A stretch of 64,000 nucleotides of DNA. It comes from Phycisphaerae bacterium (lineage in GTDB: Bacteria > Planctomycetota > Phycisphaerae > UBA1845 > UTPLA1). The notes under the pieces were generated by a model, which was not told where the DNA came from, ran no database searches, and saw nothing but the letters and a program-made list of their open reading frames with translations. The stretch lies in assembly GCA_035399845.1 (NCBI GenBank), contig DAOPJV010000001.1, forward strand, positions 45,872 to 109,871, written 5' to 3'. The position numbers and the translations under genes are program-made. Position 1 is the stretch's first letter; every line of letters starts with the position of its first letter. This document shows, in pieces, positions 12,520-46,262 of the stretch.

Positions 12520-12589
12520 CTTCGGGTGTGAGGCGCCAATACTGCAACCTCGCTGCGCTGGCCTGCTTCCTGGCGGGCGCAGTTCGGTT
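12520..12589 (+). repeat. Short REP-like element, copy 1 (contains the 39-nt core module)
   Basis: cttcgggtgtgaggcgcc...tcgctgcgctggcctgcttcctggcgggcgcagttcggt. Near-identical copies lie at 13561-13629 and 14541-14609. This copy ends 10 nt from the stop of the reverse-strand gene at 12600. Confidence 0.85.
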
Positions 12590-12599
12590 GGGGGCCGCC

Positions 12600-13244
12600 C
12601 TACGATCCCGCCTCGACGTCGACCGCCTCCTCGGCGCAGTGGCGCTGCATCTTTCCGAGAACATTCAGCCAATAGAACTTTGCGAAGAGCCTCGCATGCG
12701 GAGTTTCTTCAAGCTGGTGGTGCGTCAGTTGGATGCGCGTTTTCGTCATGTCGCTTTCGGCGGTGTCGAATCGCAATTCGACCCAGGAGCCGCGAAACTC
12801 TTCGCGTTCGACAATTCCCGATCCGCCCGCGTCGATCCGCAATAATGTGGGCGGGGCGACATCCGATCGCGTCGGCAGGCCTCGATTCCAGGTGAACATG
12901 CGAAAGTCAATTGCGAGTGACCTGCCGCAGTCGATCTCGCGCACTTTTGTTTCGTGCATGAACCGAATTGCGTCTTCGGGATTCTCCGGGTCGTTGAACA
13001 TCAGGTAGTAACGACCACCCACTTCGGGTTCGATGATGGCGTCGGCGGCCCAGAACTGCTTGACACCGTATGTCGTCGTCCACAGGTCGAAGGCCTCCTC
13101 GGGGGAGGCGTTGATTGTCATGCCGACGCAAAGCGGCGCATTCGCATCCGCCTCCTCCGTCGGCACGGGCGGAAGACTGATTGATCCGGTGATGAGCAGC
13201 GCCGTCGCGCCAAGCAGGATCGTGACGACGCGTGGGTGTCCCAT
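12600..13244 (-). CDS. SRPBCC/AHSA1-family protein with an N-terminal hydrophobic signal
   Basis: MGHPRVVTILLGATALLITGS..., then TINASPEEAFDLWTTTYGVKQFW...GGRYYLMF...IDF, typical of Activator-of-Hsp90-ATPase-like SRPBCC domains. The track ORF (to 13583) extends upstream through a repeat, so I chose the ATG at 13244. Confidence 0.65.
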   Translation of the reverse strand: MGHPRVVTILLGATALLITGSISLPPVPTEEADANAPLCVGMTINASPEEAFDLWTTTYGVKQFWAADAIIEPEVGGRYYLMFNDPENPEDAIRFMHETKVREIDCGRSLAIDFRMFTWNRGLPTRSDVAPPTLLRIDAGGSGIVEREEFRGSWVELRFDTAESDMTKTRIQLTHHQLEETPHARLFAKFYWLNVLGKMQRHCAEEAVDVEAGS

Positions 13245-13560
13245 TGCTTCAGCAATGGGGGCGCGACGATGGAAACGTGCGTTGGCTCCGATGACTCCCG
13301 CAGGCGCACGATCTCGACCTGGCGTGGATTGACGTTTCTTCGTGGGCGCTTCCCATGCGTGGGTGGAACGTCTGTTCGTTCGATCCTGTGACTCCATGTG
13401 AGGCCTCCTGAATGGAGCGGCGCTGCGATGGATGGTTCCGGCGTTAAGAGTTGCTATGGGTATATAGCGAGATTGGGGCGGCGGGTTGCAGCGGCTGCGC
13501 GCGATATTGTCTTGCGCGTGGCGATGACCGGGCGGCGCGGGAGACGCTCGCCCTGCGAAC

Positions 13561-13629
13561 CTCCGGGTATGAGGCGCCTGCACCGCGGATTCGCTGCGCT
13601 GGCCCGCTTCCTGGCGGGCGCAGTTCGGT
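13561..13629 (+). repeat. Short REP-like element, copy 2
   Basis: ctccgggtatgaggcgcctgcaccgcggattcgctgcgctggcccgcttcctggcgggcgcagttcggt. It lies 26 nt downstream of the stop of the reverse-strand gene 13656..13940. Confidence 0.85.
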
Positions 13630-13655
13630 CCTGGGTAGGCGTTCGCCCCACGAAA

Positions 13656-13940
13656 TCAATAATCGTGAAAGAGCATCCACCAGGCTCCATCCGGAGGAAA
13701 CCTCGCCGCCAGTTCCTGGATTTCGTCTGGCCCGGCGCCTTCCAGGTAGTGGGTCGCCGAGATCTCCAGAATCTCGTCCAGTTGGAGGCGAGCCCAGCAC
13801 TCGAAGCCGATGGCGTGATCCGGATCGCGCCGGAGGACCGATCTCGCCTTCGCGATGGTGTCGCTCATTCCGATCCACGCATCGCAAACGATGGCGCCCA
13901 TCTGCGGATCGAAGATGACGAGATTGACGTCGCTCGCCAT
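13656..13940 (-). CDS. Hypothetical acidic protein (94 aa), second gene of a coupled pair
   Basis: Its ATG (13940-13938) overlaps the TAA of the upstream gene (13942-13940) as TAATG. I recognise no motif. Confidence 0.5.
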   Translation of the reverse strand: MASDVNLVIFDPQMGAIVCDAWIGMSDTIAKARSVLRRDPDHAIGFECWARLQLDEILEISATHYLEGAGPDEIQELAARFPPDGAWWMLFHDY

Positions 13941-14413
13941 TACCTCAGCCTCCGTGAGCAGTAGAGTGAGAGCGCGATCGGCGTTGAAGCATGCCTGGCC
14001 ATCAGATCGGCAAATTCCCGGAGAGTCGCGTCGTGTATCTCCGGTTCGTCGATGTCAATGAGCGCCGTGGCCTCATCGGGAGTGACATTTCCCCACGAGA
14101 GGATCCCCTCGTCGTCGATCTGGGGAGGTCGGCCGATGCAGGTCCTGACGTCGTCGATGGGCAGAAAGAAGTCCATATAGTCGACGATGACGCGTCGTTC
14201 GAGATGGACGACCGCCAGGATGAACTGCCCTGTCGGCGGCGCGGCGGGATCCGGCGTGAGTGAAAGTACCTCAGCAAGGGCGTTCACCACTTGAACCGCC
14301 TGGCCCGGATCGCATCCGGTCATCCGGCGCACCATTGCGACGCAACTGACCTTGCCATGCTCTCGCAGGCACGCGTTGAGGAGCTCGCGTGTTGAATCGG
14401 GTAATTCGATCAC
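13940..14413 (-). CDS. Hypothetical protein (157 aa) with an L7/L12-C-terminal-like N-terminal helix motif
   Basis: GKVSCVAMVRRMTGCDPGQAVQVVNAL resembles the G.KI..IK.VR..TG.GL.EAK..V pattern of the ribosomal L7/L12 C-terminal domain. The rest is unassigned. It is translationally coupled to the 94-aa gene. Confidence 0.55.
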   Translation of the reverse strand: MIELPDSTRELLNACLREHGKVSCVAMVRRMTGCDPGQAVQVVNALAEVLSLTPDPAAPPTGQFILAVVHLERRVIVDYMDFFLPIDDVRTCIGRPPQIDDEGILSWGNVTPDEATALIDIDEPEIHDATLREFADLMARHASTPIALSLYCSRRLR

Positions 14414-14540
14414 GGTTCACCTGTCGTTCGTGCAGCGTGGGCCCCTCCCGCCCGAGATCAACTCAGTCACGCCGACTGTCGCCATTATGGCCGGGGTTGC
14501 GCTGATTCAGCAAAACGCGCGAGGCGCCCATACAGCGAAC

Positions 14541-14609
14541 CTTCGGGTGTGAGGCGCCTGCACCGCGGATTCGCTGCGCTGGCCTGCTTCCTGGCGGGCG
14601 CAGTTCGGT
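14541..14609 (+). repeat. Short REP-like element, copy 3
   Basis: cttcgggtgtgaggcgcctgcaccgcggattcgctgcgctggcctgcttcctggcgggcgcagttcggt, 45 nt downstream of the mfd stop. Confidence 0.85.
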
Positions 14610-14654: not shown

Positions 14655-17600
14655 CTATCGATTCGACTTCTTGCGGCGGCGCTTGATGGGGGCGTCGGCG
14701 GGGCGGGCGTTGGGGGTGGCTCGCAGGGGGCCCTGTTTCCTGTTGGGCGTCTTTTCCGGCGGCGCCGGCTCGACGGCGGTCGGTCTGGCGGGCGCTGCGC
14801 GTTTGGCGTTGGGCGATTCCAGCGTTGTGTTCTCGCGGCGGAACAGGTTCCGCAGGACGGGCAGCATCGAGTCGCCATGGAAGTAGTGCTCCGGCAGGCG
14901 CCAGTGGAGCGTGTTCGGATCGGGCAGGCTGGCGCGACCGCTGGCGTGGGTGAAGAGCGATTCCAGTTTCTTGATTTCACCATCAAACGTGAAGATCAGA
15001 TCCAGTTCCCTGCGCATGATCGTCCTGATGCCGTACTGCCCGGCGCGGACGCGGATCTCCGCCAGTGTCAGCAGCGTCTGGACTGTCGCGGGCAGATGGC
15101 CGAACGTGTCGCGCAGATCCGTCTCAAGCTGCTCGACCTCCTCCGGCGTGCGGCAGGTGGCGACGCGGCGGTAACAGTCCATGCGCTGTCGATCCGACTC
15201 GATGTATCCCCGCGGTATGTACGCCTCGACGTCCAGCTCCAGGTGCACGCTCGAGCGCGGTTCGACCTTGTCGCCGCGCATGCGTTTGACCGTGCTTTCA
15301 AGGATCTGGCAGTAAAGGTCGTAGCCCACGGCGGCGATCTGGCCGGACTGTTCGGGGCCGAGGATGTTACCGGCGCCGCGAATCTCGAGGTCGCGCATGG
15401 CGATGCGGAAGCCGGCGCCGAGTTCGCTGCACTGCTCGATCGCCTTGAGTCGGCGCGCCGCGTCATCCGTCATGGGGCGCGTCGCGTCCAGCAGCAGGTA
15501 GCAGTAGGCGCGATGCTTGTAGCGACCGACGCGGCCGCGCAGCTGATGGAGATCGGCGAGACCGAAGCGATCGGCGCGATCGATGAACATCGTGTTGGCG
15601 TTGGGAATGTCGAGCCCGGCCTCGATGATCGTGGTCGACACGAGAATGTCGGCCTCGTGGCTGATGAACTTCGCCATCACGTTCTCGAGTTCATCGCCGC
15701 CCATCTGTCCGTGGCCGACGACGATTCGCGCGTCGGGCACGAGAATCTGAAGTTTGTCAGCGATGTCGTAGATCGTCCGGACGCGGTTATGCACGAAGTA
15801 GGCCTGTCCGTCGCGATTCAGCTCTCGCACGAGCGCGTCGCGAATCATCTCGTTGTCCCAGCCGGCGACGCGCGTCGTGATGGCGCGGCGATCCATCGGC
15901 GGTGTGGCGAGGCTGGAGATGTCGCGCAGACCGATCATGGACATGTGCAGTGTGCGCGGGATCGGTGTGGCCGTGAGTGTCAGGACGTCGACCGTCGTGC
16001 GAAGCCGTTTGAGCCGTTCCTTGTGTTCGACGCCGAAGCGCTGTTCCTCGTCAACGATCACGAGACCCAGATCGGCGAACTCGACATCCTTCGAGAGAAT
16101 GCGATGCGTGCCGACGAGGATGTCAACGCGTCCTTTTCGCGTTTCAGAGAGGATGTCCTTGATCTCACTCGTCGAGCGGAAGCGATTGAGGCAGGCGATG
16201 CGGAACGGGTATTCGGCCATGCGCTCGCGGAAGGTGCGTTCGTGCTGGTCGGCGAGGACTGTCGTGGGGACGAGGACGGCGACCTGCCGACCATACTCGA
16301 TGACCTTGAAGGCGGCGCGAATCGCGAGTTCCGTCTTGCCGAAGCCGACATCGCCGCAGATGAGTCGATCCATGGGGCGCTGTTGCTGCTGATCGTTCTT
16401 GATCGCGGCGGCGGCGTCGATCTGGTCCGGCGTCGGCGTGTAGGGGAAGGCGGCTTCGAATTCGCGCTGCCAGTGTGTGTCCGGCGGAAAGGCGACGCCG
16501 TCGCTGCCGGCGCGTTCGGCCTGCACGCGCAGCAGTTCCGACGCGAGATCCGTGATGTTCTCTTCGACCTTCTGTTTGGTCTTGTTCCAGCGGGCGCCGC
16601 CGAGCCTGGTCAGCGGCGGCTTGGCGCCTTTCGCGCCGATGTATTTCTGCACGAGGTCGATCTGCGCGACGGGCACATGCATCGTCGCGCCTTCCGCGAA
16701 GGTGAGCGTGAGGAACTCTTCGCCGAAGCGGGCGCCGCGTTTCTTCATCGTGCGCAGGCCCGCGAAGCGCGCGATGCCATGGGCGATGTGGACGACGAAG
16801 TCACCTTCCTTCAGGTCGAGAAAGGAGTCGATGGCGCGGCCCGTCGTGATCGGTCGAAGCTTGCGGCGCTGAACGTGGCGATGAAAGACCTCGTGATGCG
16901 CGAGCGCGAGGAAGGCGTCGTCGGGCGCGTCGTCGTTGGCCCAGCGGAAGCCCTCCGTCAGGTAACCCGTCTCGATGTGGACGTTGTGGGCGCCGAGGCC
17001 CTGTTCGCCCATGGTTACGGAGATCTCGGCGAGAAGTTCGCCGAGGCGTTCGCGCTCGCCGGCGTTGTCGCAATAGACGATGACCGGCTGGTCGTGCGAC
17101 AGGGCGAGCAGTTGCTGGACGGCGTCGGCGGGCTTCGGGTCGAACTTCGGCGGCGGTTCCGTCCTGACGCGATAGGATGCCGCATCCGTCACCGTTGCAA
17201 GCGGAAAACGGCCGAGATGGAGCTGCGTGAACCTGGCGAGGTTGCGCAGAACGGCTTCGAAGGGGTAATGGCCCTTCGGATGGTCGAGGCGCTCGAGTAC
17301 GGTCTTCGCGACTTCGGCGGCTTCCACGGGCTCGTGGAAAATGACGACGCAGTTGTCGGGGAGGTAGCTCGCGAAGTGCGTTGTCTGATTCGGATCGAGC
17401 GTGGCTTCGTTCGAAACGTGCGTGATCGTCGCGCTGCTGACGGTATGCGTTGAGCGCTGCGTGGCGACGTCGAAACGACGGATCGATTCGATCTCGTCGC
17501 CGAAGAGTTCGATGCGGAGCGGGTCGATGTCCGTCGAGTGGAAGATGTCGAGGATCCCGCCGCGGATGGCGAAGTCGCCCGCCTGTTCGACCTGGTCGAG

Positions 17601-18098
17601 TCGTTCGAAGCCGCGATCGACGAGCCAGCGGGCGACGGCGTCGAGGTCAGTCTCGGCGCCGACGGCGAACTCGAGGGCGTTGGCTGTGAGGGCGGTCGTT
17701 GTCGGTACGGGCTGAATCAGGGCCTGGATGGGCGCGGCAATGATCCAGGGGGTTGCGTCGTTGTTCTTCTTCTGATTGGCAAGTTCCGCACAGAGATGAT
17801 TGCGGGCGTCGGCGATTTCGCCGTCACCGCCCGATTCTCCCGGCAGCGCCTCCCACGCCGGCAGTCCGAGTACATTCCCGCCGATCAGTGTGTCCAGGTC
17901 GTCGAACGACCGATCGGCCTGCTCCAGATGGGGTGTGACCAGGAGCACAGGCCGCCGAAGCAGTTTGGCGACGGCGGCTGTGGTTGCGGGCGCAGAGGAT
18001 CCCCACAGGCCGATTGTGGCGAGGGGGGCGGTCTCGCCCCGAAGTCGCTCACACAGGGCCTGGATCGCGGGATGCCGGCAAACCGCGTCGATGAGCAT
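14655..18098 (-). CDS. mfd: Transcription-repair coupling factor Mfd
   Basis: CarD/RID-like region (GDFVVHIAHGIARFAGL), the SF2 helicase motifs GDVGFGKTE, DEEQRFGV and LTLTATPIPRT, the TRG-type HQLRGRVGR, and a TRCF C-terminal domain. The start was set at the ATG at 18098 (MLIDAVCRHP...). The 71 upstream codons of the track ORF look non-coding. Confidence 0.95.
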   Translation of the reverse strand: MLIDAVCRHPAIQALCERLRGETAPLATIGLWGSSAPATTAAVAKLLRRPVLLVTPHLEQADRSFDDLDTLIGGNVLGLPAWEALPGESGGDGEIADARNHLCAELANQKKNNDATPWIIAAPIQALIQPVPTTTALTANALEFAVGAETDLDAVARWLVDRGFERLDQVEQAGDFAIRGGILDIFHSTDIDPLRIELFGDEIESIRRFDVATQRSTHTVSSATITHVSNEATLDPNQTTHFASYLPDNCVVIFHEPVEAAEVAKTVLERLDHPKGHYPFEAVLRNLARFTQLHLGRFPLATVTDAASYRVRTEPPPKFDPKPADAVQQLLALSHDQPVIVYCDNAGERERLGELLAEISVTMGEQGLGAHNVHIETGYLTEGFRWANDDAPDDAFLALAHHEVFHRHVQRRKLRPITTGRAIDSFLDLKEGDFVVHIAHGIARFAGLRTMKKRGARFGEEFLTLTFAEGATMHVPVAQIDLVQKYIGAKGAKPPLTRLGGARWNKTKQKVEENITDLASELLRVQAERAGSDGVAFPPDTHWQREFEAAFPYTPTPDQIDAAAAIKNDQQQQRPMDRLICGDVGFGKTELAIRAAFKVIEYGRQVAVLVPTTVLADQHERTFRERMAEYPFRIACLNRFRSTSEIKDILSETRKGRVDILVGTHRILSKDVEFADLGLVIVDEEQRFGVEHKERLKRLRTTVDVLTLTATPIPRTLHMSMIGLRDISSLATPPMDRRAITTRVAGWDNEMIRDALVRELNRDGQAYFVHNRVRTIYDIADKLQILVPDARIVVGHGQMGGDELENVMAKFISHEADILVSTTIIEAGLDIPNANTMFIDRADRFGLADLHQLRGRVGRYKHRAYCYLLLDATRPMTDDAARRLKAIEQCSELGAGFRIAMRDLEIRGAGNILGPEQSGQIAAVGYDLYCQILESTVKRMRGDKVEPRSSVHLELDVEAYIPRGYIESDRQRMDCYRRVATCRTPEEVEQLETDLRDTFGHLPATVQTLLTLAEIRVRAGQYGIRTIMRRELDLIFTFDGEIKKLESLFTHASGRASLPDPNTLHWRLPEHYFHGDSMLPVLRNLFRRENTTLESPNAKRAAPARPTAVEPAPPEKTPNRKQGPLRATPNARPADAPIKRRRKKSNR

Positions 18099-18437
18099 CA
18101 CGAGGGGATTATTTGGTGGGTAGCCGCGGGGGACAAGGCGCCTTTGCCAGGAGGCCGTGGCGACGCGGCGGCGACTGCAAAGTTTGCCACATGAAGGGAC
18201 ATTAATGATCAGAATAGGGGTTTTTGTTGAATCAGAGGGGCGTTTCTGATTTACTGGACGCGTAGGTAAGTGGGTAGGTAGCCTTTTCCTGCAGGGTTCT
18301 CGTCCCCTCAACCCTTGCGGTAGTTCGTCGGATTCCCCATTCGGCGTTGGCGTCCCACAGGTGGAGTGGTCTTTTTGGTCGTGCGAGGCCGCATTGGCGT
18401 CTTTGTGCGATTGTTCAGGTTATTGGGAATCAAATCC

Positions 18438-21400: not shown

Positions 21401-21503
21401 GGGCGACGCCTCGCTGGCGCCCTGTGCGGACCTTGCGACGCCGCTCGGTGTTGTGGACGCGATGGACGCCGCCGCCTTCGTTTCGATCCTCGTTGGCCCG
21501 TAA
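18438..21503 (+). CDS. Secreted multidomain metzincin: M10-like Zn protease, PPC domain, MAM/lectin-like domain, 2 Fn3-like repeats, dockerin-like C-terminus
   Basis: Signal/TM MIKSKRCLPAFIAGCLVVSLLSFGLIASF. LTYSFPPDG and HEHGHGIGELH match HExxHxxGxxH. The PPC motif is GDPFEPDNTPATATDIG. GQWDRG...DFDGSGQCWLTDND...DVDGGSTILTSPVIDL is MAM/lectin-like. There are two ~95-aa repeats (C..V.V.W....A..Y.VYRN...FYWV.A.N.CG). The C-terminus is GDFNLDGLRNGDDISGMVAALLG. Confidence 0.9.
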   Translation: MIKSKRCLPAFIAGCLVVSLLSFGLIASFDGKSGARAGDAQAAAQPTIAEIPAGSEAVASALGRMIVADTGRRVGPERLAEMAERFQQRCDRPAIPIPQLCFAPDTPDDVISQYAATAGPRFFQIDRWSLTANGPTGGAGDPITLTYSFPPDGTTIPVIDGVSFPAGINSFRAWMNGLYGSELVWRPIFAGVFARWSQVAGITYVYEPADDGAQTNFSPGILGVRGDLRICGKVLDGNSGVLAYNNFPDDGDMVFDAGDSFFNDMSNSSLRLRNVAAHEHGHGIGELHVCPLDEIKLMEPIASVAFDGPQHDDIRNAHGHYGDPFEPDNTPATATDIGALAISSTQTIGLVTSPAISFGSRLSIDANGEQDYFRFTVATPAAVSVTVTPIGTNYEDAPQQCSFGTAFCCTGTFTNSQISANLGVEVIASDGSTVLGSATSAAAGVAESLSDVVLNPAGNYYIRVFETASQSQPQLYWLTVSLDTVPFIPLSLALPGGAPTELTPGQPETFVVIVTPGDDTLVGGSVQLQYRFDGGAFASAPATPLGGNVFEVTLPAANCGDSPEFYVQAEGAVSGIVTLPSGGAGAPLTAIVGSFATQFSDNGETDLGWSVSGNATDGQWDRGVPENNDRGDPPADFDGSGQCWLTDNDPSNTNSDVDGGSTILTSPVIDLSALPDATIRYARWFDNTAGSAAGEDTMVVEVSNNGGGSWTTMETIGPSTAESSGGWFEVEYTISDFVAPTASFRIRFTASDTGSGSVVEAGVDAIQISGVDCNVVIQEPQPPTGVSATDATSCDDVVVTWTASATADDYDVYRNSVDDSGTAMLIATGLVATNYVDATATPGDVSFYWVRACNGAGCSGFSLPDSGSRADVPGQPQGVSASSGDVCGAIEVSWSALAGVTQYRVYRNTTSDFGTAIDLATVPAGQTSLVDADVDIPTPYFYWVAAENTCGVGNESAAAQGAAAIRGDFNLDGLRNGDDISGMVAALLGDASLAPCADLATPLGVVDAMDAAAFVSILVGP

Positions 21504-21762
21504 CGACGTCGTGATCGGTCGTTGGTAGCGTTATCAGTCGGAGTAAATATGGGGCGATCGTCAACCGACGACTGGGGTTTGCGGCTGCGAATCGCCTATA
21601 ATTTATGTTCGTTTCCCGCATTGCGATCTCATCCGGGGGCGTTGCGGGTGGCGGAAGGTGGAGTGGTTTTCGTTCTCAATCGTCAGGGTGGACGTGACAC
21701 GTGCGAGCGGCACGCGCGCAGGATGTCTCGTTGATTCCCCATTCTGATTCTGGAGGTAGTTG

Positions 21763-35024: not shown

Positions 35025-35213
35025 CAATCACAAATCTCAACTAGTTGGCAGATCTTTCGTCGCGCGACGTCCGATAGCTTCGGCCAAGCCGCGATGATCC
35101 GAGCCAGATCGGGGTCGATTTCGCCCGAAACTGCAGCGCTCGCAGCGCATTCTGCAGCGCTCGCCTTGGGTGAGATTCGTAAGTCCTTGCAATCACAGCT
35201 CGTTACGTCGCCA

Positions 35214-35235
35214 GGTTCGAGTCCCTCAGCGCCCA
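35214..35235 (+). repeat. attR: duplicated 3' end of tRNA-Val
   Basis: ggttcgagtccctcagcgccca is identical to 26759-26780. Confidence 0.85.
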
Positions 35236-35299
35236 GTTCACTTCTTTTCACGACGTAACGCTTACGAATCAATGACGAACACGCCGGGGTCCTTCCGGA

Positions 35300-35603
35300 T
35301 CGCGCGCCGGTTGTCGCGCGCGATTCCGTGCCGGGCCAGTCATGGCTCGGCCCTTCCGTCGGTCGTTGCGCGGCTCGTCGATCGGTTACGTGCGATTGAG
35401 CGATGGTTGTTGCATGGCGACTGCCGCCTGACTGCGGCGGCTCGGTGTGGGGCGACTCGGCGGCCAGGACGGTGAAGGCGGTGGCTCGGCCTGTCTCGCT
35501 GCGCTGGCCTGTTCCCTGGCGGTCACAGTTCGGTCATGCGCGCCCGGCGTGCGGTTGCGAGCCGGGCCGGTCATGGCTCGGCCTTTCCGTCGGTCGTTGC
35601 GCG
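35300..35603 (+). repeat. Long modular repeat, array 1 (one full ~245-bp unit plus a truncated unit)
   Basis: The unit runs: hairpin ccgagccgggccagtcatggctcgg; ttccgtcggtcgttgcgcgg...; hairpin ccgccgcctgactgcggcgg; then the core cgctgcgctggcctgttccctggcggtcacagttcggt (35497-35534). The second unit breaks after cggtcgttgcgcg at 35603. Confidence 0.85.
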
Positions 35604-35615
35604 TGCTGTTGTCGA

Positions 35616-35906
35616 TCACTCGCCACCATTTATTGTCCGAACGAATCCGATGATGCACCAGACGATTCCCAACACCCACGTCGGTATTACCAGAAACCAA
35701 CCGCCGTAGGACGACGTCAGCCAGTGTGCGTTGTTACGGCGGGAGGACTTCCAATACTCGTATCGAATGCGCAGATCAAAGAATGCAACCAGGGGTCCGC
35801 CGAAGAGCATGACAGTCGAATGGTCAAGACTCCCTCCCCCCAGAATTCCGACGCCATAGACCGAGCCAAGCCCCAATAGCGCCGAACAGAATCCCAATTT
35901 GTTCAT
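35616..35906 (-). CDS. Small membrane protein (about 96 aa) inside an A/T-richer insert
   Basis: MNKLGFCSALLGLGSVYGVGILGG...GGPLVAFFDLRI...GGWFLVIPTWVLGIVWCIIGF has three hydrophobic helices. The start is uncertain, since in-frame ATGs exist upstream as far as 36125. Confidence 0.5.
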   Translation of the reverse strand: MNKLGFCSALLGLGSVYGVGILGGGSLDHSTVMLFGGPLVAFFDLRIRYEYWKSSRRNNAHWLTSSYGGWFLVIPTWVLGIVWCIIGFVRTINGGE

Positions 35907-36246
35907 GAGAAGAAAGCCACCTGTTGAATCAGATGCGAACGACCTATGCAGGTAGTTACGTATGCTCCTCATGACCGACATCCTACCAGAACCAATTCGG
36001 CGACTCATTGAAAACACGGGATATCCGATGGGACCCGACACGATCAGGGGCGGCGGACGGTTCAAATACCGCCGACGGATTAGGGTCCCATCTGGACCGA
36101 ATGGCATTCGATCCCGCAATGCCATTGGAAGTGGGTGGGACGGCCGGGGTCATTCGCACTCGCGATCGGGCAATTCGCTGTCAAACCTCCCTTTGTCACG
36201 GGCATTGTTGATGCGGGGGCGTGATTGGAACTCGAATCGGTCGTTG

Positions 36247-36705
36247 CGCGGTTCGTCGATCGGTTACGTGTGGTTGAGCGATGGTTGTTGCATGGCGACC
36301 GCCGCCTGACTGCGGCGGCTCGGTGTGGGGCGACTCGGCGTGGCGCGAGTCGGCGGCCAGGACGGTGAAGGCGGTGGCTCGGCCTGTCTCGCTGCGCTGG
36401 CCTGTTCCCTGGCGGTCACAGTTCGGTCATGCGCGCCCGGCGCGCAGTTCCGAGCCGGGCCAGTCATGGCTCGGTTTCTCCGTCGGTCGTTGCGCGGTTC
36501 GTCGATCGGTTACGTGCGATTGAGCGATGGTTGTTGCATGGCGACCGCCGCATGACTGCGGCGGCTCGGTGTGGGGCGATTCGGCGTGGCGCGAGTCGGC
36601 GGTCAGGACGGTGAAGGCGGTGGCTTGGCCCGCTGTGCTGGCCTGTTCCCTGGCGGTCACAGTTCGGTCATGTGCGCCCGGCGCGCGGTTCCGAGCCGGG
36701 CCGGT
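36247..36705 (+). repeat. Long modular repeat, array 2 (5'-truncated unit, one full unit, start of a third)
   Basis: The period is about 246 bp: ggtcgttgcgcggttcgtcgatcgg occurs at 36249 and 36486. Core modules are at 36390-36427 and 36631-36668. The array ends 15 nt from the stop of the reverse-strand kinase gene. Confidence 0.85.
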
Positions 36706-36720
36706 AGTGGTCAATGCTGC

Positions 36721-39216
36721 TCATTCAGAAACGGAGTTTCGCTGGCGCCAGGCCGCGGCCTGGTCCGGGGCGTTCACGTTGTCGAACAGGATCGCCAGGT
36801 CGTCTCGAATTCGATGGATCATCGCCGGGTTCACCGGCGCCATCTCCTCGCCGCGCTGCTCGATCGCCAGCAGGATCGTCTTCGCCTCGTCGTATCGCTT
36901 CAGCCGCATGAGGCATTCGCCACGAATCATTTCCACTGTCATGACGGGGGCGCTCGACGCGTCAAAGAACCGTGTTCGCTGGCTCGACGCGTCGTCGAAG
37001 TACTCGAGGGCCTCGGCGAATTTTCCGCGCAGGCACAGGAGTGAGCCGAGATTGAGCAGGTTGGTCGCGAGGTCGGGATGACCCTCCGGATGAACCCGGC
37101 GGTAAATCGACGTCGCCTGGCGAACCAGTTCGATCGCCTCGTCGATGCGATTCTGCTGCGCCAATATCACGCCGAGGTTGTCGAGGCTCTGGGCAATCGT
37201 CGGATGGTCTTCCGGCAGTTGCGCGCGGCGAATTTCCAGCACGCGGCGGCCGAGCGTTTCGGCGCCGGCGAAGTCGCCGCGCGCCCGCAGAGCGCTCCCC
37301 AGGTTGTTCAGCGACTCTGCAAGCTCCAGCGACACGGGTCCGCAGACGCGCTCCCGAATCTCTGCGGACTCTTCCAGCAGCGCCAGCGCCCGATCCAGTT
37401 CGCCCCGCGCACGATGAATCGACGCCAGGTTGTTGAGGTCCTGGGCCGTCGCCGCCGACTCGGCGCCCGAATACCCGCGGCTGATGTCGAGCGCCTTGCG
37501 GGCGTATTGCAGGGCGTCATCCAATTGGCCCGCCTCGTAACAGACGGCGCCAAGCTCACGATGCGCGCCTGCGAGCCGCTCGCTCCGACATCGGGCGACG
37601 TGTTCGTCTTCGGGGACCTGCTCTGCGAACCGAGACTCGATGTCCAGGGCGCGCCGGAGATGTGTCATCGCATCGGCGTAGAGGCCGAGGCCCGCGTACG
37701 TCTTGCCGATGGCCGAGTGGATGGCGGATTCAAGGGCCGGATCGTCAGCCAGCTCGGCGGCCATGTTCGCTGAGGCCGCCTTGAGCACGTCGACGACCTT
37801 GACATCAATTCCGTTTTGAGAGGGATCGGCGGCCGTCATCATCGATTGCAGGAACTCAACGACGGCGGCGGATCGATGCGATTCGGCGTCGGCGAGTTGC
37901 GCCTGTTTCTCCGCGAGTTCGCGGGCCGCGATCGCGCTCGTCCGCTGCGTTGTCGCGACGCGATAGAGCAGGCTCATGCCGATCGTCCCGCCCAGCATCG
38001 CGACGACGGCCAGCAGCGTCGCGATCGTGGCGCCACGATTGCGTTTCACGAATCGATGCAGTCGATAGATCGTCGTCTGCGGTCGGGCCTCGATCGGGCG
38101 CCCCTGCAGATGGTGGCGAATGTCATTGGCGAACTGCTCGACGGATCGGTATCGCTCCTCCGCCGAGCGGCGCATCGCTTTCAGAACAATCGCGTCCAGA
38201 TCACCCGCGAGGCGACGCCGGCGCTGAATGCTCGCCCGCAGCGTCTGCGAATCACTGTCCTGAGCCGCCCGGGCCAGGACCGCGCTGGGCCTGTCGGGAT
38301 CGATTTCACAGATGATCCGTTCCAGTTCGTAGAGCGGCCGATGGGCTCCGTGAAACGGATGGACGTCCGTCAGCAGTTCGTAGAGAACGACGCCGAGCAT
38401 GTAAATGTCGGTCCGCGTGTTGATAGGCTCGCCCAGGATCTGCTCGGGGCTCGCATACGCCGGCGTCATGTGTCGCCCGGCCGTTGTCACGCCGATTGCG
38501 TCATTCGGTTTCTGGTTCACGAGTTTCGCGATGGAAAAGTCGAGCAGTTTGCAGGCGCCATCATCGGAGACGAGGATGTTGCTCGGCTTCAGGTCGCAGT
38601 GAACGATCAGGTTTTCGTGGGCGCACTGCACGGCGTCGCACACCTGCAGAAAGAGCTCAAGTCGCGCATCGATATCGAGGTGGTCCTCCCGGCAGACATC
38701 CGTGATGGTCCTGCCCTCGACATACTCCATCACGAAGTAGGGGCAGCCCTCGGCGCTGACGCCGGCGTCGAGCAGCCGCGCGACGTGAGGATGATCGAAG
38801 GTCGCCAGCGCCTGGCGTTCGCGCTGGAATCGCCGGACCATGGCGCCATTCATCACGTCCTGTCGGATCAGCTTGATCGCGACGATCTTGTCATACTGAT
38901 CATCGGCTCGGCGCGCGGCGAAGACGTGTCCCATGCCGCCGGACGCGATGAACCGCGTGATCTCGTAGGGGCCGAGATGTGCGCCGATCAGCAGCGTCGG
39001 GTCGTCGCCGGGGGCGGGCGAATGATGGCTCAGCTGGAAGACCGGCGTTTCGAAGTGCGACGGCGCTGAGTCGTGGGCGTCGAGCAGCGATTGGAGTTCG
39101 CTCAACATCGACGCGTCATTGTCGCAGGCGCGACGGAGCCAGGGCTGGCGCTTGTCGTGATCCAGTTCACAGGCGGAGTCAAACAGACTCCTCATTCGAC
39201 GCCATCGTTCGTCCAT
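36721..39216 (-). CDS. Ser/Thr protein kinase with TM helix and TPR repeats (ECF-sigma partner)
   Basis: The N-terminal MDERWRRMRSLFDSACEL...LLDAH is typical of kinases paired with TIGR02999-type sigmas. Kinase motifs are GGMGHVFAARR, AIKLI, HCDLKPSNILV, DFSIAKL and TPAYASPEQ. The TM helix is IATLLAVVAMLGGTIGMSLLY. There are multiple TPR units (NNLAS/NNLGS/DNLGV). Confidence 0.9.
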   Translation of the reverse strand: MDERWRRMRSLFDSACELDHDKRQPWLRRACDNDASMLSELQSLLDAHDSAPSHFETPVFQLSHHSPAPGDDPTLLIGAHLGPYEITRFIASGGMGHVFAARRADDQYDKIVAIKLIRQDVMNGAMVRRFQRERQALATFDHPHVARLLDAGVSAEGCPYFVMEYVEGRTITDVCREDHLDIDARLELFLQVCDAVQCAHENLIVHCDLKPSNILVSDDGACKLLDFSIAKLVNQKPNDAIGVTTAGRHMTPAYASPEQILGEPINTRTDIYMLGVVLYELLTDVHPFHGAHRPLYELERIICEIDPDRPSAVLARAAQDSDSQTLRASIQRRRRLAGDLDAIVLKAMRRSAEERYRSVEQFANDIRHHLQGRPIEARPQTTIYRLHRFVKRNRGATIATLLAVVAMLGGTIGMSLLYRVATTQRTSAIAARELAEKQAQLADAESHRSAAVVEFLQSMMTAADPSQNGIDVKVVDVLKAASANMAAELADDPALESAIHSAIGKTYAGLGLYADAMTHLRRALDIESRFAEQVPEDEHVARCRSERLAGAHRELGAVCYEAGQLDDALQYARKALDISRGYSGAESAATAQDLNNLASIHRARGELDRALALLEESAEIRERVCGPVSLELAESLNNLGSALRARGDFAGAETLGRRVLEIRRAQLPEDHPTIAQSLDNLGVILAQQNRIDEAIELVRQATSIYRRVHPEGHPDLATNLLNLGSLLCLRGKFAEALEYFDDASSQRTRFFDASSAPVMTVEMIRGECLMRLKRYDEAKTILLAIEQRGEEMAPVNPAMIHRIRDDLAILFDNVNAPDQAAAWRQRNSVSE

Positions 39217-41515: not shown

Positions 41516-44500
41516 ATGAACATACGCCTTCAGACCATGACATGCCTGCTTGCGATCTGCGTCGTGAGCGCGAATCGACTCTCGGGCCAGACGCTTTACC
41601 AACAGGACTTTGAGACGATTTCGACGCCGTCCGGCTCGAACCACGGTCCCGCCGAACTGATCGCAGCGGGATGGCAGTTTCGCAATCAGAGCGATCCAGC
41701 GTCCAGTGGCGACTGGGACCGCGCCGCCTGGGCCTATCAGGGTGGTCGATCGATGCTCATCTACCAGTCCGTCGCGTTCTACAGCGGCGCCAACGCTGAG
41801 GCGAGCAGTTGGGCGATCCTACCGGCCGTCGCCGGGCAATCCGCCGGCGACACGCTTCGATTCTTCTACTTCAATTCCCCCGCGCCACCCCTGGTACCGA
41901 ATGGCCGGCTTCAGGTGCGTTACTCGCCCTCGGGTGGAACAGGAACGGGATCGAATTCTGACGACGTCGGTTCGTTCACCGTGCTGCTCGCCGAAACGCC
42001 GGCGACAGACGCCGCCTGGACGGAGATGAACGTTTCCCTGCCCGGCAGCGGCCGGATCGCGCTGCGTTACTACATTCCCGCCGGCACATCGCAGAACGGT
42101 TTCTGGGCCTACTACTATCTTGATAACCTGACGATCGGACCTGCCGGACCTCCCTGCGCGCAGCCGCCGATTCCGAATCCCGGCGAATCCGTCATGTGGA
42201 CGGCCGCCGGTGGTCCCTACGAAATCTGCGAGAACGTCACAATTCCCGCCACGGCGACAGTGACGCTTGAGCCCGGCGTCGTTGTGGACATTCTTCAGAC
42301 CGCTCAATTGACAGTTGCCGGAAGCATGGTCGGAATCGGTACGCCTTCGCAGCCGATTACGCTGACGGGCTCGTCAGTGTTTCCGACACGGATGATTGTG
42401 GCCGGGAACCTGCAACTCGATCACGCCATCGTCAACGTGCTGATTCAGCCGGTGAGTGGATTCCAGTCCTTTCTGAACACGACGTTTCAGTCAAACGGGT
42501 ACGTCTTCGGCGGCGGCGCCGCCCCCATGATCGAGTTCGACGGATGCGACTTCGACAGCTCATACGTCCGCCTGGGCGGGAGCACCGTGCGCATGGCCAA
42601 CACATCCTTCACGGGGAACTTCTGCGAGATCAACGGCTCGTTATTGAATATGGATGACGTCACGGTCGACGGCGCCCCGTTCACCGGGCTGTCACTCTGG
42701 GAGTTTGACAATCAGCCCCTGCATATCAACAACGTCAGCGTAACGAACTGCGGCGCCTCCGCCCTGGATCTTGTCGGGGGGAACTTCTTCATCGGCGGTT
42801 CCGTCAACCTGGAGGGCAACCAGTACCCGGCCCGCGTCGGGGGATCCGGGATACTCGCCGGAAGCGCACTGCCGGCGACGGGCAACACAAACAACTATGC
42901 GCTGGTGGAAGACCTGAGTGTGGCGGCGTCCAATCTGGTGTGGACGGATATCGGCGTTCCCTACGTGATCGAGGAACCGTCGTACACCGGCGGTCGATTG
43001 CGCATCGACCCAGGTGTTGTCGTGCAACTCGGACCCGATACGACATTCTGGGGAGAGCCCGGCTTCGTCCAGGTTCGCGGTCTTCCCGATGCCCCGGTCA
43101 TTGTCGAACGCCTCGATCCGCTGCAGGCGTGGCAGGGGCTGCAGTATTTCAATCGAATTGAGAACTGCCAGATTACGGGCGGGCAGATCGGCGCTCGCTT
43201 CCATTCCAACAGTCTCGTCGGCTACCTCGACAACTGTGTCATCAAGGACTGCGACTTCGGCACGCAGAATGATGTCGTTGTTCGGAAAACGCATTTCGTC
43301 AACAACGGTATCGCCTCCTGGGGTGACAACTGGACGGACGCGCTGGACGGCGCCGTCGGGGCCAACAGTTTCGAAGGCAACACGCAGGCGGTTGAGTCTA
43401 ATGGTCAACTGATCGACGCCCCCAACAACTGGTGGGGGGATCCTTCGGGGCCCGCGTCGCCGAACAATCCCGGTGGAACCGGGCAGCCCGTCCCGGGGCC
43501 CGGCGTGAATGTGTTTCCGTTCCTCACCGCCGCGCCGGACTTCAATGACAATCCGCCAGTCGTGCGAATGAACCGCCACTCCTTCATGCTGGAGCCCGGT
43601 GCGAAGGTGATCTTCACCTGGCGGGCGGAGGATGATCTCGGCATTGTCTCGCAGCGCGTCGAATTCGATCACCCGATCCAGGGCGTATCGATCCTGGCCG
43701 ACAACATCCCTGCGGGACAACGCGGTTTTGAATGGACGGTTCCGGATGTCGGGTTCATCGTGAACAACATCGCGCCAACGGTGCGCGTCGTCGCGATCGA
43801 CGCCGCGGGCCAGGAGGGCTGGGATGAGGAGGCGTTTCTCATTCCCACGGGCGACGTGCAGGGAACGTTGAACATCACGACCGATCTGTCGAGTCCATTC
43901 GTCGCGGGCCAGCCCATCGGTGAAATCTGCTGGACGCCCGAGGGTACAAATCCGCTTGGCTTCACGGTCGGCGCCGCCATCCTTTACGACGGCGACATGC
44001 GAAGCAAGGGGCTTGGTGGTGTGACATCCAACCTGACCTGCCTTTCCGGCGTGAAGCAGGCGCCGTTCGTCAGTACCGATACGGCCCGCATCGCCCTCGT
44101 GATCCAGGAGAGCCTGAACAATGTGAAGTACTTTCTGAGTGATGAATTCGTGATTCGCCCCGACACCCGCTTCGGCGACGCGCCGCCGATCGTGAACATG
44201 ACCTCTCCCACGGCCGGCGCGAGCATCCCGGGTGGTTCCGTGGTTCACATCGCCTGGACCGCGTCGGACGATCAGGCGCTGCGATCGTTTGATATTCAGG
44301 CGACCTACGATGGTGGTCGAACGTGGCACAACATCGCGGAGTCGCTGCCGGCGGACGCGACGGCGTATGACTGGCTTCTGCCCCCCAGCGAGGGTATTGA
44401 AGACCTTCGCGTGCGCGTGCTCGCGATTGATATGCGATACCAGAGCACGTCGGACGGCGGGCATCGCGTTCTTTCGATCCTGCCGGGCGTTGGCGCGCCT

Positions 44501-44677
44501 GTCGGCGATATCAATGGAGACGGGCTCGCGAACATCGACGACGTGTCTCCCTTCGTGAGCGTACTGCTCGGCTCGCCGATCGAACCGCTGCACGTGGGTC
44601 GCAGTGATTTGAATGGCGACAGCGCCGCGAACGGCCTGGACATTGCGCCGTTCCTGAATGCGATCGTCAGCCCCTGA
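41516..44677 (+). CDS. Secreted right-handed beta-helix protein with N-terminal lectin/MAM-like domain, Asp-box and C-terminal dockerin-like module
   Basis: Signal MTCLLAICVVSANRLSGQ. The N-terminal domain ends YYYLDNLTI. It has long runs of beta-helix-type repeats (NTSFTGN, NNVSVTNCG, IENCQITGG, LDNCVIKDC), the Asp-box YDGGRTW, and the terminal GDINGDGLANIDDVSPFVSVLLG...SDLNGDSAANGLDIAPFLNAIV. Confidence 0.85.
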   Translation: MNIRLQTMTCLLAICVVSANRLSGQTLYQQDFETISTPSGSNHGPAELIAAGWQFRNQSDPASSGDWDRAAWAYQGGRSMLIYQSVAFYSGANAEASSWAILPAVAGQSAGDTLRFFYFNSPAPPLVPNGRLQVRYSPSGGTGTGSNSDDVGSFTVLLAETPATDAAWTEMNVSLPGSGRIALRYYIPAGTSQNGFWAYYYLDNLTIGPAGPPCAQPPIPNPGESVMWTAAGGPYEICENVTIPATATVTLEPGVVVDILQTAQLTVAGSMVGIGTPSQPITLTGSSVFPTRMIVAGNLQLDHAIVNVLIQPVSGFQSFLNTTFQSNGYVFGGGAAPMIEFDGCDFDSSYVRLGGSTVRMANTSFTGNFCEINGSLLNMDDVTVDGAPFTGLSLWEFDNQPLHINNVSVTNCGASALDLVGGNFFIGGSVNLEGNQYPARVGGSGILAGSALPATGNTNNYALVEDLSVAASNLVWTDIGVPYVIEEPSYTGGRLRIDPGVVVQLGPDTTFWGEPGFVQVRGLPDAPVIVERLDPLQAWQGLQYFNRIENCQITGGQIGARFHSNSLVGYLDNCVIKDCDFGTQNDVVVRKTHFVNNGIASWGDNWTDALDGAVGANSFEGNTQAVESNGQLIDAPNNWWGDPSGPASPNNPGGTGQPVPGPGVNVFPFLTAAPDFNDNPPVVRMNRHSFMLEPGAKVIFTWRAEDDLGIVSQRVEFDHPIQGVSILADNIPAGQRGFEWTVPDVGFIVNNIAPTVRVVAIDAAGQEGWDEEAFLIPTGDVQGTLNITTDLSSPFVAGQPIGEICWTPEGTNPLGFTVGAAILYDGDMRSKGLGGVTSNLTCLSGVKQAPFVSTDTARIALVIQESLNNVKYFLSDEFVIRPDTRFGDAPPIVNMTSPTAGASIPGGSVVHIAWTASDDQALRSFDIQATYDGGRTWHNIAESLPADATAYDWLLPPSEGIEDLRVRVLAIDMRYQSTSDGGHRVLSILPGVGAPVGDINGDGLANIDDVSPFVSVLLGSPIEPLHVGRSDLNGDSAANGLDIAPFLNAIVSP

Positions 44678-44712
44678 CACAACGTGATTTGAGATGTGAA
44701 CGCGCCATAACG

Positions 44713-44742
44713 AGCCGGGCCAATGATGGCCCGGCTTTTTTT
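44713..44742 (+). terminator. Intrinsic terminator
   Basis: Stem agccgggcc/ggcccggct with loop aatgat, then 6 T, 36 nt after the stop at 44677. Confidence 0.75.
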
Positions 44743-44747
44743 GTTCT

Positions 44748-45103
44748 GCGGTTGCGAGCGCCGGCGCGCGGTACCGAGCCGGGCCAGTCATGGCCCGGTC
44801 ATTTCACCGGACGATGCGCGTTTCGGCGAACACTAGAGTGCGAATAAGCGATGGTCGTTGCATGTCGACCGCCGCATGACTGCGGCGGCTCGGAATGTGG
44901 CGACGCGCGGGATTTCTGATCGGCGGATGCGCCCTGCTGTGCTGCTCGGCGAAGCAGTCTTACTGCGCTACTTGGTGGCGCGTCTTGTTCCGCTGCGCTG
45001 GCCTGTTCCCTTGCGGTCACAGTTCGGTTGTGCGAGCCGGCGAGCGCGCGACGCTCCGAGCCGGGCCAGTCATGGCTCGGTCGTTCCGCCGGACGATGCG
45101 CGT
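44748..45103 (+). repeat. Long modular repeat, array 3 (diverged unit plus a truncated unit)
   Basis: The same module order as arrays 1 and 2 but diverged: ccgagccgggccagtcatggcccgg; gcgatggtcgttgcatgtcgaccgccgcatgactgcggcggctcgg; core 44991-45028. The second unit breaks after ggacgatgcgcgt at 45103. Confidence 0.8.
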
Positions 45104-45149
45104 CTGGTCGGGCTGGTGTTCATTGGGCACGATGGCGCCACTCGGCCGC

Positions 45150-45863
45150 CTAACGACGCCGCTTCTCGAACACAATGGCCGCAAGCGGAACCGCGAGCAT
45201 GCAGAGGCTGGTGGGCTCCGGCGTGGCGATGAGTTGGTAGGCTGTGTCGGAGGAGAGCGTTGAGTGTCTCCAGTCACCCGTCGCGGCGTTCATGAACGCC
45301 TGACCGTTTGCATCGCTCTGGCTGAATTCCCAACGAAACGCGGTTTCCAGATCGCCGATTTGTTGCACTTCCAGCCAATAGGTCCTATTGGCCGCAAGCG
45401 AGACAGGCGAGGATAGGACGACCTCATAGAGGTACTCCGCCGGGTCGACTCCAACGAAGACATGCTCCCCAGTTACTACCCGCGATGGATTCGCGACGAT
45501 TGCTTCATAGACAACGTTGCTGTCATCAGGAAGCCCGTCTCCTGAACGCGCCTCCAGAAAGCGAATCTGGAATGATTCCGCCATGGGAGGATTGTCCAGG
45601 TTATAAAAGCCCCACCAGCGAAGCGCGGCGATATCCGTTGATTCGACAAGCGCGAAGTCATCGGCCACGCGATTCGAATACGGATCGCCGAAATTGTCGC
45701 GAAATAGTGAGTCAGCCGCTCCGCCCCCGACACGTGTCGGCTGATGATCGACGACGATCAGGTCATCCATCGTCCCTGGTCCGGCGAGAACAGGCGCCGC
45801 CGAAAGTGAGATACCGACCGCGATGATTGATACGATGATTGCCGTGCGCATGCTCTGGCCCAT
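45150..45863 (-). CDS. PEP-CTERM-anchored secreted protein
   Basis: Signal MRTAIIVSIIAVGISLSAAPVLAG. The C-terminal ATPEPTSLCMLAVPLAAIVFEKRRR is a PEP motif, a hydrophobic helix and a basic tail. Confidence 0.8.
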   Translation of the reverse strand: MGQSMRTAIIVSIIAVGISLSAAPVLAGPGTMDDLIVVDHQPTRVGGGAADSLFRDNFGDPYSNRVADDFALVESTDIAALRWWGFYNLDNPPMAESFQIRFLEARSGDGLPDDSNVVYEAIVANPSRVVTGEHVFVGVDPAEYLYEVVLSSPVSLAANRTYWLEVQQIGDLETAFRWEFSQSDANGQAFMNAATGDWRHSTLSSDTAYQLIATPEPTSLCMLAVPLAAIVFEKRRR

Positions 45864-46027
45864 CGTGTCGCTTTCCCCGTGTTCTCCGGCGTCCCTCGAC
45901 CTATTTTACGGCGACGGCGCCCGAGAATCCAAGTGGGCTGGCAATTGGCGCCACAAGAATCCAGCGGATTATTGGGCGCTTGCCACCATTGGCGTGCGTT
46001 TGGCAACCAACAACGCCACCCGGTCGC

Positions 46028-46262
46028 GCCGGCGAGCGCGCGACGTTCCGAGCCCGTCATGGCTCGGTCTTTCCGTCGGGCGATGCGCGTTTCGGCGAAC
46101 AGTTGAGTACGAATGAGCGATGGCTGTTGCATGTCGACCGCCGCATGACTGCGGCGGCTCGGAGTGTGGCGACACGTCTTGCTGCGCTACTTGGTGGCGC
46201 GTCTTGTTCCGCTATGCTGGCCTGTTCCCTTGCGGTCACAGTTCGGTTGTTTGAGCGCGCGC
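46028..46262 (+). repeat. Long modular repeat, copy E (one diverged full unit)
   Basis: ccgagcccgtcatggctcgg...gatgcgcgtttcggcgaac...ccgccgcatgactgcggcgg...core 46210-46247. It ends about 25 nt from the stop of the reverse-strand gene at 46288. Confidence 0.8.

Follow-up and report, generated by a model that had tools for sequence, protein, structure and literature searches.

A small class of Y1 proteins, class 3, was defined by Quentin, Siguier, Chandler and Fichant (2018, BMC Genomics 19:475, PMC6006769). Its members occur in Planctomycetes, Acidobacteria and Proteobacteria and carry the HuH motif as NHVH, together with a Y-x4-Q motif, and weak hairpins whose 5' foot is CnGA stand on either side of their genes. 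The Solibacter usitatus example, ABJ87398.1, is listed with ~600 copies, and the Solibacter repeats given in Table S1 of that study are CCGAGCCGCGACTGTCAAGGAGCGGTTG and AGCCGCGACCGTCAGGGAGCGGTCG (PMC6006769). The present work concerns a family of intergenic repeats in a 64,000-nucleotide stretch of DNA from a Phycisphaerae bacterium (assembly GCA_035399845.1, contig DAOPJV010000001.1, positions 45,872 to 109,871), referred to below as the window, which holds eight copies of a conserved core. The core is very probably a repetitive extragenic palindromic (REP)-type repeat that is recognised as a single strand by a class 3 Y1 HUH transposase (IS200-like, of the REP-associated tyrosine transposase, or RAYT, type) encoded once elsewhere in the genome between core copies. 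The observations that carry this reading are the repeat family itself, a hairpin with compensatory changes, a core-flanked transposase gene whose product has the appropriate motifs and predicted fold, a match to published class 3 repeats, and a strand bias. The repeats are of a known kind, described in 2018, and the family found here is a lineage-specific addition to it; of the features reported here, only the strand bias is new relative to the published account.

Canonical REP sequences, bacterial interspersed mosaic elements (BIMEs) and REPINs (REP doublets forming hairpins), which are associated with the class 2 RAYT enzymes of E. coli and Pseudomonas, resemble the repeats of the window in being short imperfect palindromes that are intergenic and mostly situated just after genes (PMC3333891, PMC3733652). 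The resemblance extends to their occurrence as solitary copies, inverted pairs or alternating arrays with linkers, and to the presence of one domesticated Y1 transposase gene flanked by repeats. The hairpin found here is much weaker than that of canonical REPs, however, and the enzyme belongs to a class separate from the class 2 RAYTs, with no solved-structure match by sequence. The IS200/IS605 insertion sequences (IS608, ISDra2) have the same enzyme fold as is predicted here, and their recognition through subterminal hairpins and a short 5' guide can be counted as a further likeness (PMC3333891, PMC6006769); in these elements orientation is known to be coupled to the lagging-strand template (PMC3333891, PMC6006769). 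In contrast to these insertion sequences, the repeats considered here are not the ends of a mobile element that carries a gene; the transposase gene is present as a single copy between housekeeping genes, and the hairpins are dispersed.

The eight cores had been pointed out in an earlier examination of the window, and a search with a 15-mer, allowing up to two mismatches and evaluated against shuffles, recovered all of them as claimed, at 12551, 13592, 14572, 35497, 36390, 36631, 44991 and 46210. Ten matches were obtained where 0.41 would be expected by chance, and no shuffle reached ten; the two additional matches, at 16755 (minus strand) and 55084 (plus strand), are weak, with two mismatches each, and intragenic. 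All eight cores are co-oriented. They were searched for and placed on the plus strand, and the REP-like reading, in which the 5' foot comes first, is that of the window minus strand. Three cores belong to a short form (12551..12588, 13592..13629 and 14572..14609), and the existence of this form was borne out, with a shared unit of ~94 nt (the original prediction gave ~70 bp) that is 68-89% identical between copies and consists of the core and a flank containing GAGGCGCC; the units lie, in minus-strand reading, at 12495..12588, 13536-13629 and 14516-14609. In the first of them the foot and hairpin occupy 12563-12587 and read CCGAA-CTGC-GC-CC-GCCA-GG-AA-GCAG on the minus strand, while the second has CTGC/GCGG as its stem, which contains a T.G wobble in minus-strand reading.

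The remaining five cores (35497..35534, 36390..36427, 36631..36668, 44991..45028 and 46210..46247, again with the minus strand as the reading strand) are held by a long-form unit of 241-246 nt, as had been proposed. Two such mosaic units stand in tandem at 36191..36720 (minus-strand reading), with a period of 241-246 nt and with the cores at 36390 and 36631 as those of unit 1 and unit 2 respectively, and partial units are found at ~35302-35611, 44750-45110 and 46019-46262. On the plus strand the order within a unit is hairpin A, module B, a variable stretch and the core. The two additional long-form hairpins that had been reported, CCGAGCC..GGCTCGG and CCGCCGC(C/A)TGACTGCGGCGG, both exist, the second of them at 35409, 36287, 36533, 44857 and 46126, and its loop changes from C to A as described, with the stem gaining one pair. 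Hairpin A is the palindrome CCGAGCC-N11-GGCTCGG at 36450..36474, which presents CCGA at the 5' end on both strands and for which no strand is assigned; its other copies are at 35331-35350, 35562-35581, 44774-44798, 45056-45080 and 46048-46067. Module B, at 36533..36569, is a second repeat type with a CCGA foot, reading CCGA-G-CCGCCGCA-GTCA-TGCGGCGG-TCGCCATGCAAC on the minus strand, and has further copies at 35409-35445, 36287-36323, 44857-44893 and 46126-46162. Both modules fold well as single strands (z -3 to -3.9), the DNA fold of the module B copy at 36533..36569 having -13.7 kcal/mol and z -3.9. The short and long forms are BIME-like mosaics, in which the core is combined with other modules bearing a CCGA foot (hairpin A and module B) and with lineage-specific linkers.

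The family was followed beyond the window by scanning a core pattern on JGI metagenome contigs from the same and related samples, which gave 22 loci (loci are referred to by number below), and distinct copies were gathered with a profile of the core; the resulting count covers metagenome contigs and the window rather than a closed genome. The window sequence itself is also present in GCA_964488975.1 (an activated-sludge metagenome-assembled genome, or MAG), ERZ27257452, ERZ27257486 and JGI 3300009779, and the label Phycisphaerae is attached to proteins identical to one that adjoins repeats elsewhere in the genome. A search for sequencing runs that contain the region gave three DNA metagenome runs and no RNA run. 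The organism-specific core pattern has no match in the species-representative genomes, so the species is absent from that set. Among the ~45 distinct copies in the 22 metagenome loci and the window, the core is the sole conserved part: only ~31-36 nt, CTGGCCTGCTTCCTGGCGGGCGCAGTTCGGTCC, is common to the copies, and the flanks vary by locus. Module B is also found at L007/L011, L009, L014, L017, L020 and L008, co-oriented or head-to-head with the core. Several loci contain alternating arrays, in which full cores are interleaved with diverged inverted cores, a layout like that of BIMEs and REPINs; in the L010/L025 array plus and minus cores alternate with a period of 213 nt, and the arrays at L027, L015 and L016 have periods of 291-294 nt. 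Inverted pairs and alternating arrays are absent from the window, where all copies are direct. A further mosaic type occurs at L023 (2940-3740), where each of three cores is preceded by a common ~45-nt stretch, GATGGYTGGCTGTGTTGTYGWGTYAWGTTGAGATAC; two of the three cores are diverged (GGGGGCGGTTCGG), and the copies bracket an open reading frame (ORF) for a 126-aa membrane protein. Contigs L010, L012, L013, L015, L016 and L019 terminate within repeat arrays, which indicates that the arrays break assemblies, and copy numbers in MAGs of the organism are therefore underestimates.

Short, non-coding, dispersed and modular copies, with inverted core pairs 35-54 nt apart at some loci, would also be expected of a miniature inverted-repeat transposable element, that is, a deletion derivative of a DDE-type insertion sequence moved via its terminal inverted repeats. 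This explanation is nevertheless very improbable, because all eight window copies are solitary and lack an inverted partner, because the flanks differ right up to the core and so leave no unit bounded by terminal repeats, and because the sole transposase found beside cores is a Y1 enzyme, a type that works without terminal inverted repeats. Integron-like attC sites, or other site-specific recombination sites marking gene cassettes, would be co-oriented, would each stand just 3' of a gene and would be imperfect palindromes able to fold as single strands, as the repeats of the window are; the genes ahead of the repeats, however, include mfd (1218 aa) and an 831-aa kinase gene and are distributed across 34 kb with plus-strand genes in between, tandem and inverted arrays occur without ORFs between copies, and the enzyme that goes with the repeats is a Y1 HUH transposase rather than a tyrosine recombinase. 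Promoterless cassettes of one orientation beside an integrase were not found, in a window that was not scanned ORF by ORF for integrases, and cassette sites are very improbable as the identity of the repeats. The options offered in the original prediction came close to the mark in naming REP/BIME elements and a recombination site, but the premise of a fixed gene-relative orientation on which they were based fails outside the window.

The transposase is encoded at L021 (also represented by L028, L150 and L152) by an ORF of 175-190 aa, located at 322-894 in L021 between cores with a CCGA foot at 53-94 (minus), 157-199 (minus) and 962-1004 (plus). The ORF scores 31.1 bits on the Pfam model Y1_Tnp, against a cutoff of 23, and falls under the cutoffs of the NCBIfam IS200 and REP_Tyr_transpos models (23 against 80 bits for the latter). 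Its homologues number 958, mostly from Planctomycetota and Acidobacteriota, and JGI annotates many of them as 'REP element-mobilizing transposase RayT'; a homologue is also encoded by the cultured planctomycete Botrimarina colliarenosi. Alignments of 10 and of 42 homologues show no variation in the motifs SNHVH (containing NHVH), W, HGST and Y-x4-Q (YVRDGQ). A profile search of the family against PDB sequences found no relative. The AlphaFold model has a pLDDT (predicted local distance difference test score) of 91, and its top 30 fold matches in the PDB are all IS200, IS608, ISDra2, Sulfolobus TnpA or the E. coli RAYT 4ER8, so that the protein matches a Y1 HUH transposase with the IS200/IS608/RAYT fold at the level of the predicted structure. 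On contigs of up to 338 kb the gene, which is single-copy, has an aminotransferase gene on one side and moeA on the other. The assemblies in which it occurs, ERZ27257452, ERZ795053, Ga0116151 and Ga0116152, are also those of the window contig and the core loci. A PhdYeFM/ParE toxin-antitoxin pair lies ~5 kb upstream of it, at L028 4224-4843. A homologous gene with 60% identity is found in Phycisphaerales GCA_020639075.1 (L029), flanked by direct 186-nt repeats (2710-2895 and 3562-3747) that are 87% identical and each end in a core, GCGACCGNNCTCCCTGACGGTCGCRGTTCGGT; this direct-repeat layout is like that of an insertion sequence, whereas the flanking cores in the window's organism are inverted.

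The agreement with class 3 is found in both partners. The repeat consensus here, CCGAACCGCGACCGTCAGGGAGCGG (window CCGAACTGCGCCCGCCAGGAAGCAG), is the same motif as Solibacter CCGAGCCGCGACTGTCAAGGAGCGGTTG, and the two share the 5' CCGA foot, a 4-bp stem, an internal loop of the GA/GA type, CC/GG, a 4-nt loop and nearly the same sequence, while the protein has the same signature of NHVH, Y-x4-Q and an extended N-terminus. The Y1 motifs, the flanking hairpins with a CnGA foot, the dispersed copies and the homologous repeat sequence of the class are present here. A full-text literature search for the motif sequence returned no match, and the sequence match came from the supplement of PMC6006769. 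The family departs from the Solibacter repeats in its stems, which include the lineage-specific variants CTGC/GCAG and CTGT/ACAG, in an extension of 12 nt on the 3' side, GGCCAGCGCAG, and in the additional modules, hairpin A and module B, arranged in ~94- and ~245-nt units; it is also distinguished by the strand bias described below, of which there is no mention in Quentin et al. 2018 (PMC6006769).

In minus-strand reading the core is made up of a CCGA(A) foot and a hairpin in which a 4-bp stem is separated by a 2+2 internal loop from a further 2-bp stem that closes a 4-nt loop; the long-form core, for example, reads CCGAA-CTGT-GA-CC-GCCA-GG-GA-ACAG. In 34 distinct copies, taken from this organism alone and collected without constraint on the stem, this 4+2-bp hairpin is paired in 97.5% of cells. 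The covariation check that had been proposed for the hairpins was run on this set, and two pairs change on both sides, with a score that was reached by none of 500 shuffles; changes from C-G to U-A occur in 5 of the 34 copies. A longer hairpin, CTGCGC/GCGCAG plus GCC/GGC, is the minimum free energy fold of the short-form copies, but only 81% of cells are paired in it and it does not surpass shuffles, and the 4+2-bp class 3 hairpin is preferred on the basis of this comparison. In a tally of 74 distinct copies the outer stem is CCGC/GCGG in 60 and CTGC/GCAG in 6, with two copies each of CTGT/ACAG (the compensatory variant of core 35497), CTGC/GCGG and CCGT/GCGG (both with T.G on the foot strand) and CTGC/GCCG (a mismatch); the inner CC/GG pair is invariant, and the CCGA foot is present in 74 of 74.

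Conservation reaches well beyond the organism. When species-representative genomes were scanned with CCCTGNCGGTCGCNGTTCGG, at least 120 loci (L030-L149) were obtained in Bryobacterales, Phycisphaerales, Planctomycetaceae, Pirellulales, Gemmataceae, Legionellales, a 'delta proteobacterium' and Anaerolineaceae, and the phyla of these hosts correspond to the published class 3 host range. Among the matches listed, 20-25 nt, CCGCTCCCTGACGGTCGCGGTTCGG, is almost invariant across distant phyla, including the loop, in MAGs of Acidobacteriota (Bryobacterales), Planctomycetota, Legionellales, the 'delta proteobacterium' and Anaerolineaceae, and the cross-phylum consensus of these matches is (T)CCGC-TCCCTGACGGTC-GCGG-TTCGG. 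REP families are normally species-specific, and conservation of a loop across phyla is unusual. Two other readings of the conserved sequence were considered and set aside. A sigma-54 promoter, suggested by TGGC..TTGC/TGGC, has a spacing that is one base too long when judged by eye. A coding function was suggested by array periods of 192, 213, 294 and 354 nt, all multiples of three, and by a plus-strand frame that reads LRWPASWRAQFG; the periods in the window are 241 and 246, however, the flanks have no common frame or start codon, and the REP identity accounts for the conservation. One core, at L024 7126-7165, does lie in frame within a 614-aa membrane-protein-like ORF (6164-8005), in a Gly/Arg-rich stretch; this could be an insertion that kept the frame, or an artefact of the ORF call in which two genes were joined.

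The orientation of the cores can be compared with two references, the direction of replication and the direction of the neighbouring genes. GC skew on the window's plus strand is positive in nearly all 2-kb bins, and it is equal in plus-strand and minus-strand genes (+0.045 and +0.049), so that it behaves as a replication-type skew. Across loci of at least 3.8 kb, with the transposase locus excluded and L009 (1.1 kb) uninformative, the strand reading CTGGCC...GCAGTTCGG is the G-rich strand at 12 of 12 informative independent loci of the organism, the skew signal being weak in L006, L018 and L010/L025. Among the matches listed across phyla, orientation and skew agree at 68 and disagree at 34 of all single-orientation loci, with corresponding counts of 40 and 9 where the absolute skew is at least 0.04 and 27 and 4 where it is at least 0.06; when the mean skew of plus and minus genes is used instead, 32 of these listed loci agree and 12 disagree (p 0.004).

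The gene-relative rule contained in the original prediction, namely that the TTCGG end of the core is closely followed by the end of an opposite-strand gene, holds in the window and at most other loci but not at all of them. It is followed at the seven window loci and at L018, L022, L012:9700, L015:424, L019 and L025, with the gene ending 6-150 nt beyond the TTCGG end, while L017 and L020:1546 conform to it loosely. Exceptions are L023 and L014, where copies lie before or after co-oriented genes (three copies at L023), L020:2426 and L006 (divergent genes) and L024 (within an ORF), and the inverted arrays (L010/L025 and L027) and the transposase locus also stand outside any fixed gene-relative orientation. 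Among the matches listed across phyla, unidirectional contexts favour the rule by 22 to 13, and there are 20 convergent, 8 divergent and 15 intragenic contexts. Core orientation tracks the replication strand more consistently than it tracks the neighbouring genes, and the orientation shared by the eight window copies is best explained by a replichore-wide strand bias, supplemented by a weaker tendency to lie at the 3' ends of lagging-strand genes.

The gene-relative pattern can be read in favour of a different explanation, in which the repeats are cis-acting RNA elements of the 3' untranslated region (terminators, mRNA-stabilising hairpins or small RNAs) that are transcribed with the upstream minus-strand gene and conserved for an RNA function. 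The single-sided stem changes point in the same direction, as they give T.G on the transcribed (minus) strand and would give C.A on the other, and so does the distance to genes ending on the TTCGG side, which among the cross-phylum matches listed are nearer (median 61 against 143 nt); REPs of other bacteria, moreover, affect mRNA 3' ends (PMC3733652). Set against this are the weakness of the gene-relative bias outside the window, as given by the 22:13 ratio, and the occurrence of copies between divergent genes, upstream of genes, within ORFs, in inverted pairs and around the transposase gene. No core or repeat matches Rfam, either across the whole window at gathering thresholds or in both repeat regions at E<=10, where only a tRNA and noise were returned; the cores lack a T-run and were not picked up by a terminator scan, their stem has just 4+2 pairs, the folding of long-form cores is no better than that of shuffles, and cross-phylum conservation that includes the loop speaks for recognition by a protein. 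An RNA function is therefore unlikely as the explanation of the family, and an RNA role is at most a secondary one, for some copies.

Several points weigh against the identification of the cores as REP-like partners of a class 3 transposase. The core hairpin is small, with only 4+2 pairs, and the long-form cores fold no better than shuffles (z >= 0), which means that conservation resides mainly in the sequence, including the loop; such conservation would be as expected for a protein recognition site. The GT[AG]G tag of canonical REPs is absent and its place is taken by the CCGA foot, although GTAG does occur, variably, close to the opposite end of some copies. The eight window copies are partly local duplicates and do not represent eight independent events. 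The transposase gene lies outside the window, and its link to the window is through co-occurrence in four assemblies, not through a closed genome. To our knowledge, the class 3 group has been the subject of one comparative study only and has never been tested experimentally. No activity of a class 3 enzyme on such hairpins has been shown, according to PMC6006769. As regards orientation, GC skew is only a proxy for the direction of replication, and the 5' foot is on the C-rich strand, which, by analogy with IS608, is not the one that would be looked for on the lagging-strand template; either the foot convention or the IS608 analogy is incomplete.

If the cores are nonetheless REP-type partners of the class 3 enzyme, the behaviour of IS608 and ISDra2 and of the E. 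coli TnpA-REP suggests that the enzyme would act on single-stranded DNA, with the hairpin and foot as its recognition site, and would nick and rejoin the DNA nearby (PMC3333891, PMC6006769). Via single-strand intermediates, copies could spread and arrays could expand or contract, as has been proposed for REP/BIME sequences and for IS608. Because single-stranded DNA at the fork would be found mainly on one template strand, that of the lagging strand, solitary copies would come to be co-oriented along a replichore, and this availability of single strands at the fork would explain the 8/8 co-orientation in the window. Sites just past stop codons are the usual pattern for REPs, being sites at which insertions are tolerated. 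The excess of copies behind lagging-strand genes may reflect single-strand access in transcribed head-on regions, or selection on the transcript. A more specific proposal, which we consider doubtful, is that class 3 hairpins insert or survive with a fixed strand on the G-rich (lagging-strand-template) side of each replichore, with a preference for sites past the stops of head-on genes, where the foot strand would be the non-template strand exposed by transcription or R-loops. If true, the copies would constitute a natural read-out of the availability of single-stranded DNA to a domesticated Y1 enzyme, and the host could use those at the 3' ends of head-on genes.

The immediate surroundings of the window copies are as follows. 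The stop codon of a minus-strand ORF lies to the right of every locus, as had been claimed, the distances from core to stop at the seven loci being 11, 26, 45, 81, 52, 121 and 40 nt; the two longest gaps are mostly occupied by conserved long-form sequence. The minus-strand genes concerned include an AHSA1/SRPBCC-family gene (12600..13244, stop 11 nt past core 12551), a gene for a 94-aa protein (13656..13940, 26 nt past core 13592), mfd, which encodes the transcription-repair coupling factor (14655..18311, 45 nt past core 14572), a Ser/Thr kinase gene with TPR repeats (36721..39216, 52 nt past core 36631), a gene for a DUF7901 protein (45150..45863, 121 nt past core 44991) and a DUF4190-like gene (46288..47016, 40 nt past core 46210). 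Three of the seven loci (12551, 35497 and 44991) lie between convergent genes and are accordingly also 3' of a plus-strand gene. Forward-strand genes had been said to end in ordinary hairpin/T-run terminators instead of repeats, and convincing examples were found at only two positions, 25673-25699, after a plus-strand gene, and 44712..44737 (plus strand), after the plus-strand gene 41516-44677; the contrast had been overstated. The stem of the terminator at 44712-44737 (GAGCCGGGCCAATGATGGCCCGGCTTTTTTT) is nearly that of hairpin A (CCGAGCCGGGCCAGTCATGGCCCGG), which follows 40 nt on, and either the hairpin A module was derived from a terminator or the terminator from the module.

Other features of the window were noted in passing. 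Repeats of 273-279 nt at 20864-25373, within and between the plus-strand genes 18366-21503 and 21760-25641, are repeated domains of the encoded Peptidase_M10/fn3 proteins and have no relation to the intergenic family. The stretch 32001-36000, which contains an RNase_T/BRCT exonuclease gene at 34155-35024, has a GC content of 0.57 against ~0.63-0.65 elsewhere and reaches up to the first long-form repeat; its DNA may have been acquired. The window has one tRNA gene, at 26707-26780 on the plus strand (Rfam RF00005, 69.7 bits).

The repeats of the window are thus no longer a candidate new RNA or recombination element, but very probably REP-like partners of a class 3 Y1 transposase. To what has been described for this class they add a hairpin model with compensatory changes, ~20 nt that hardly vary between distant phyla, mosaics of the BIME type from a planctomycete, and a consistent orientation relative to GC skew. 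This orientation, if confirmed on closed genomes, would tie the enzyme class to replication-coupled processing of single-stranded DNA, as is the case for IS608.

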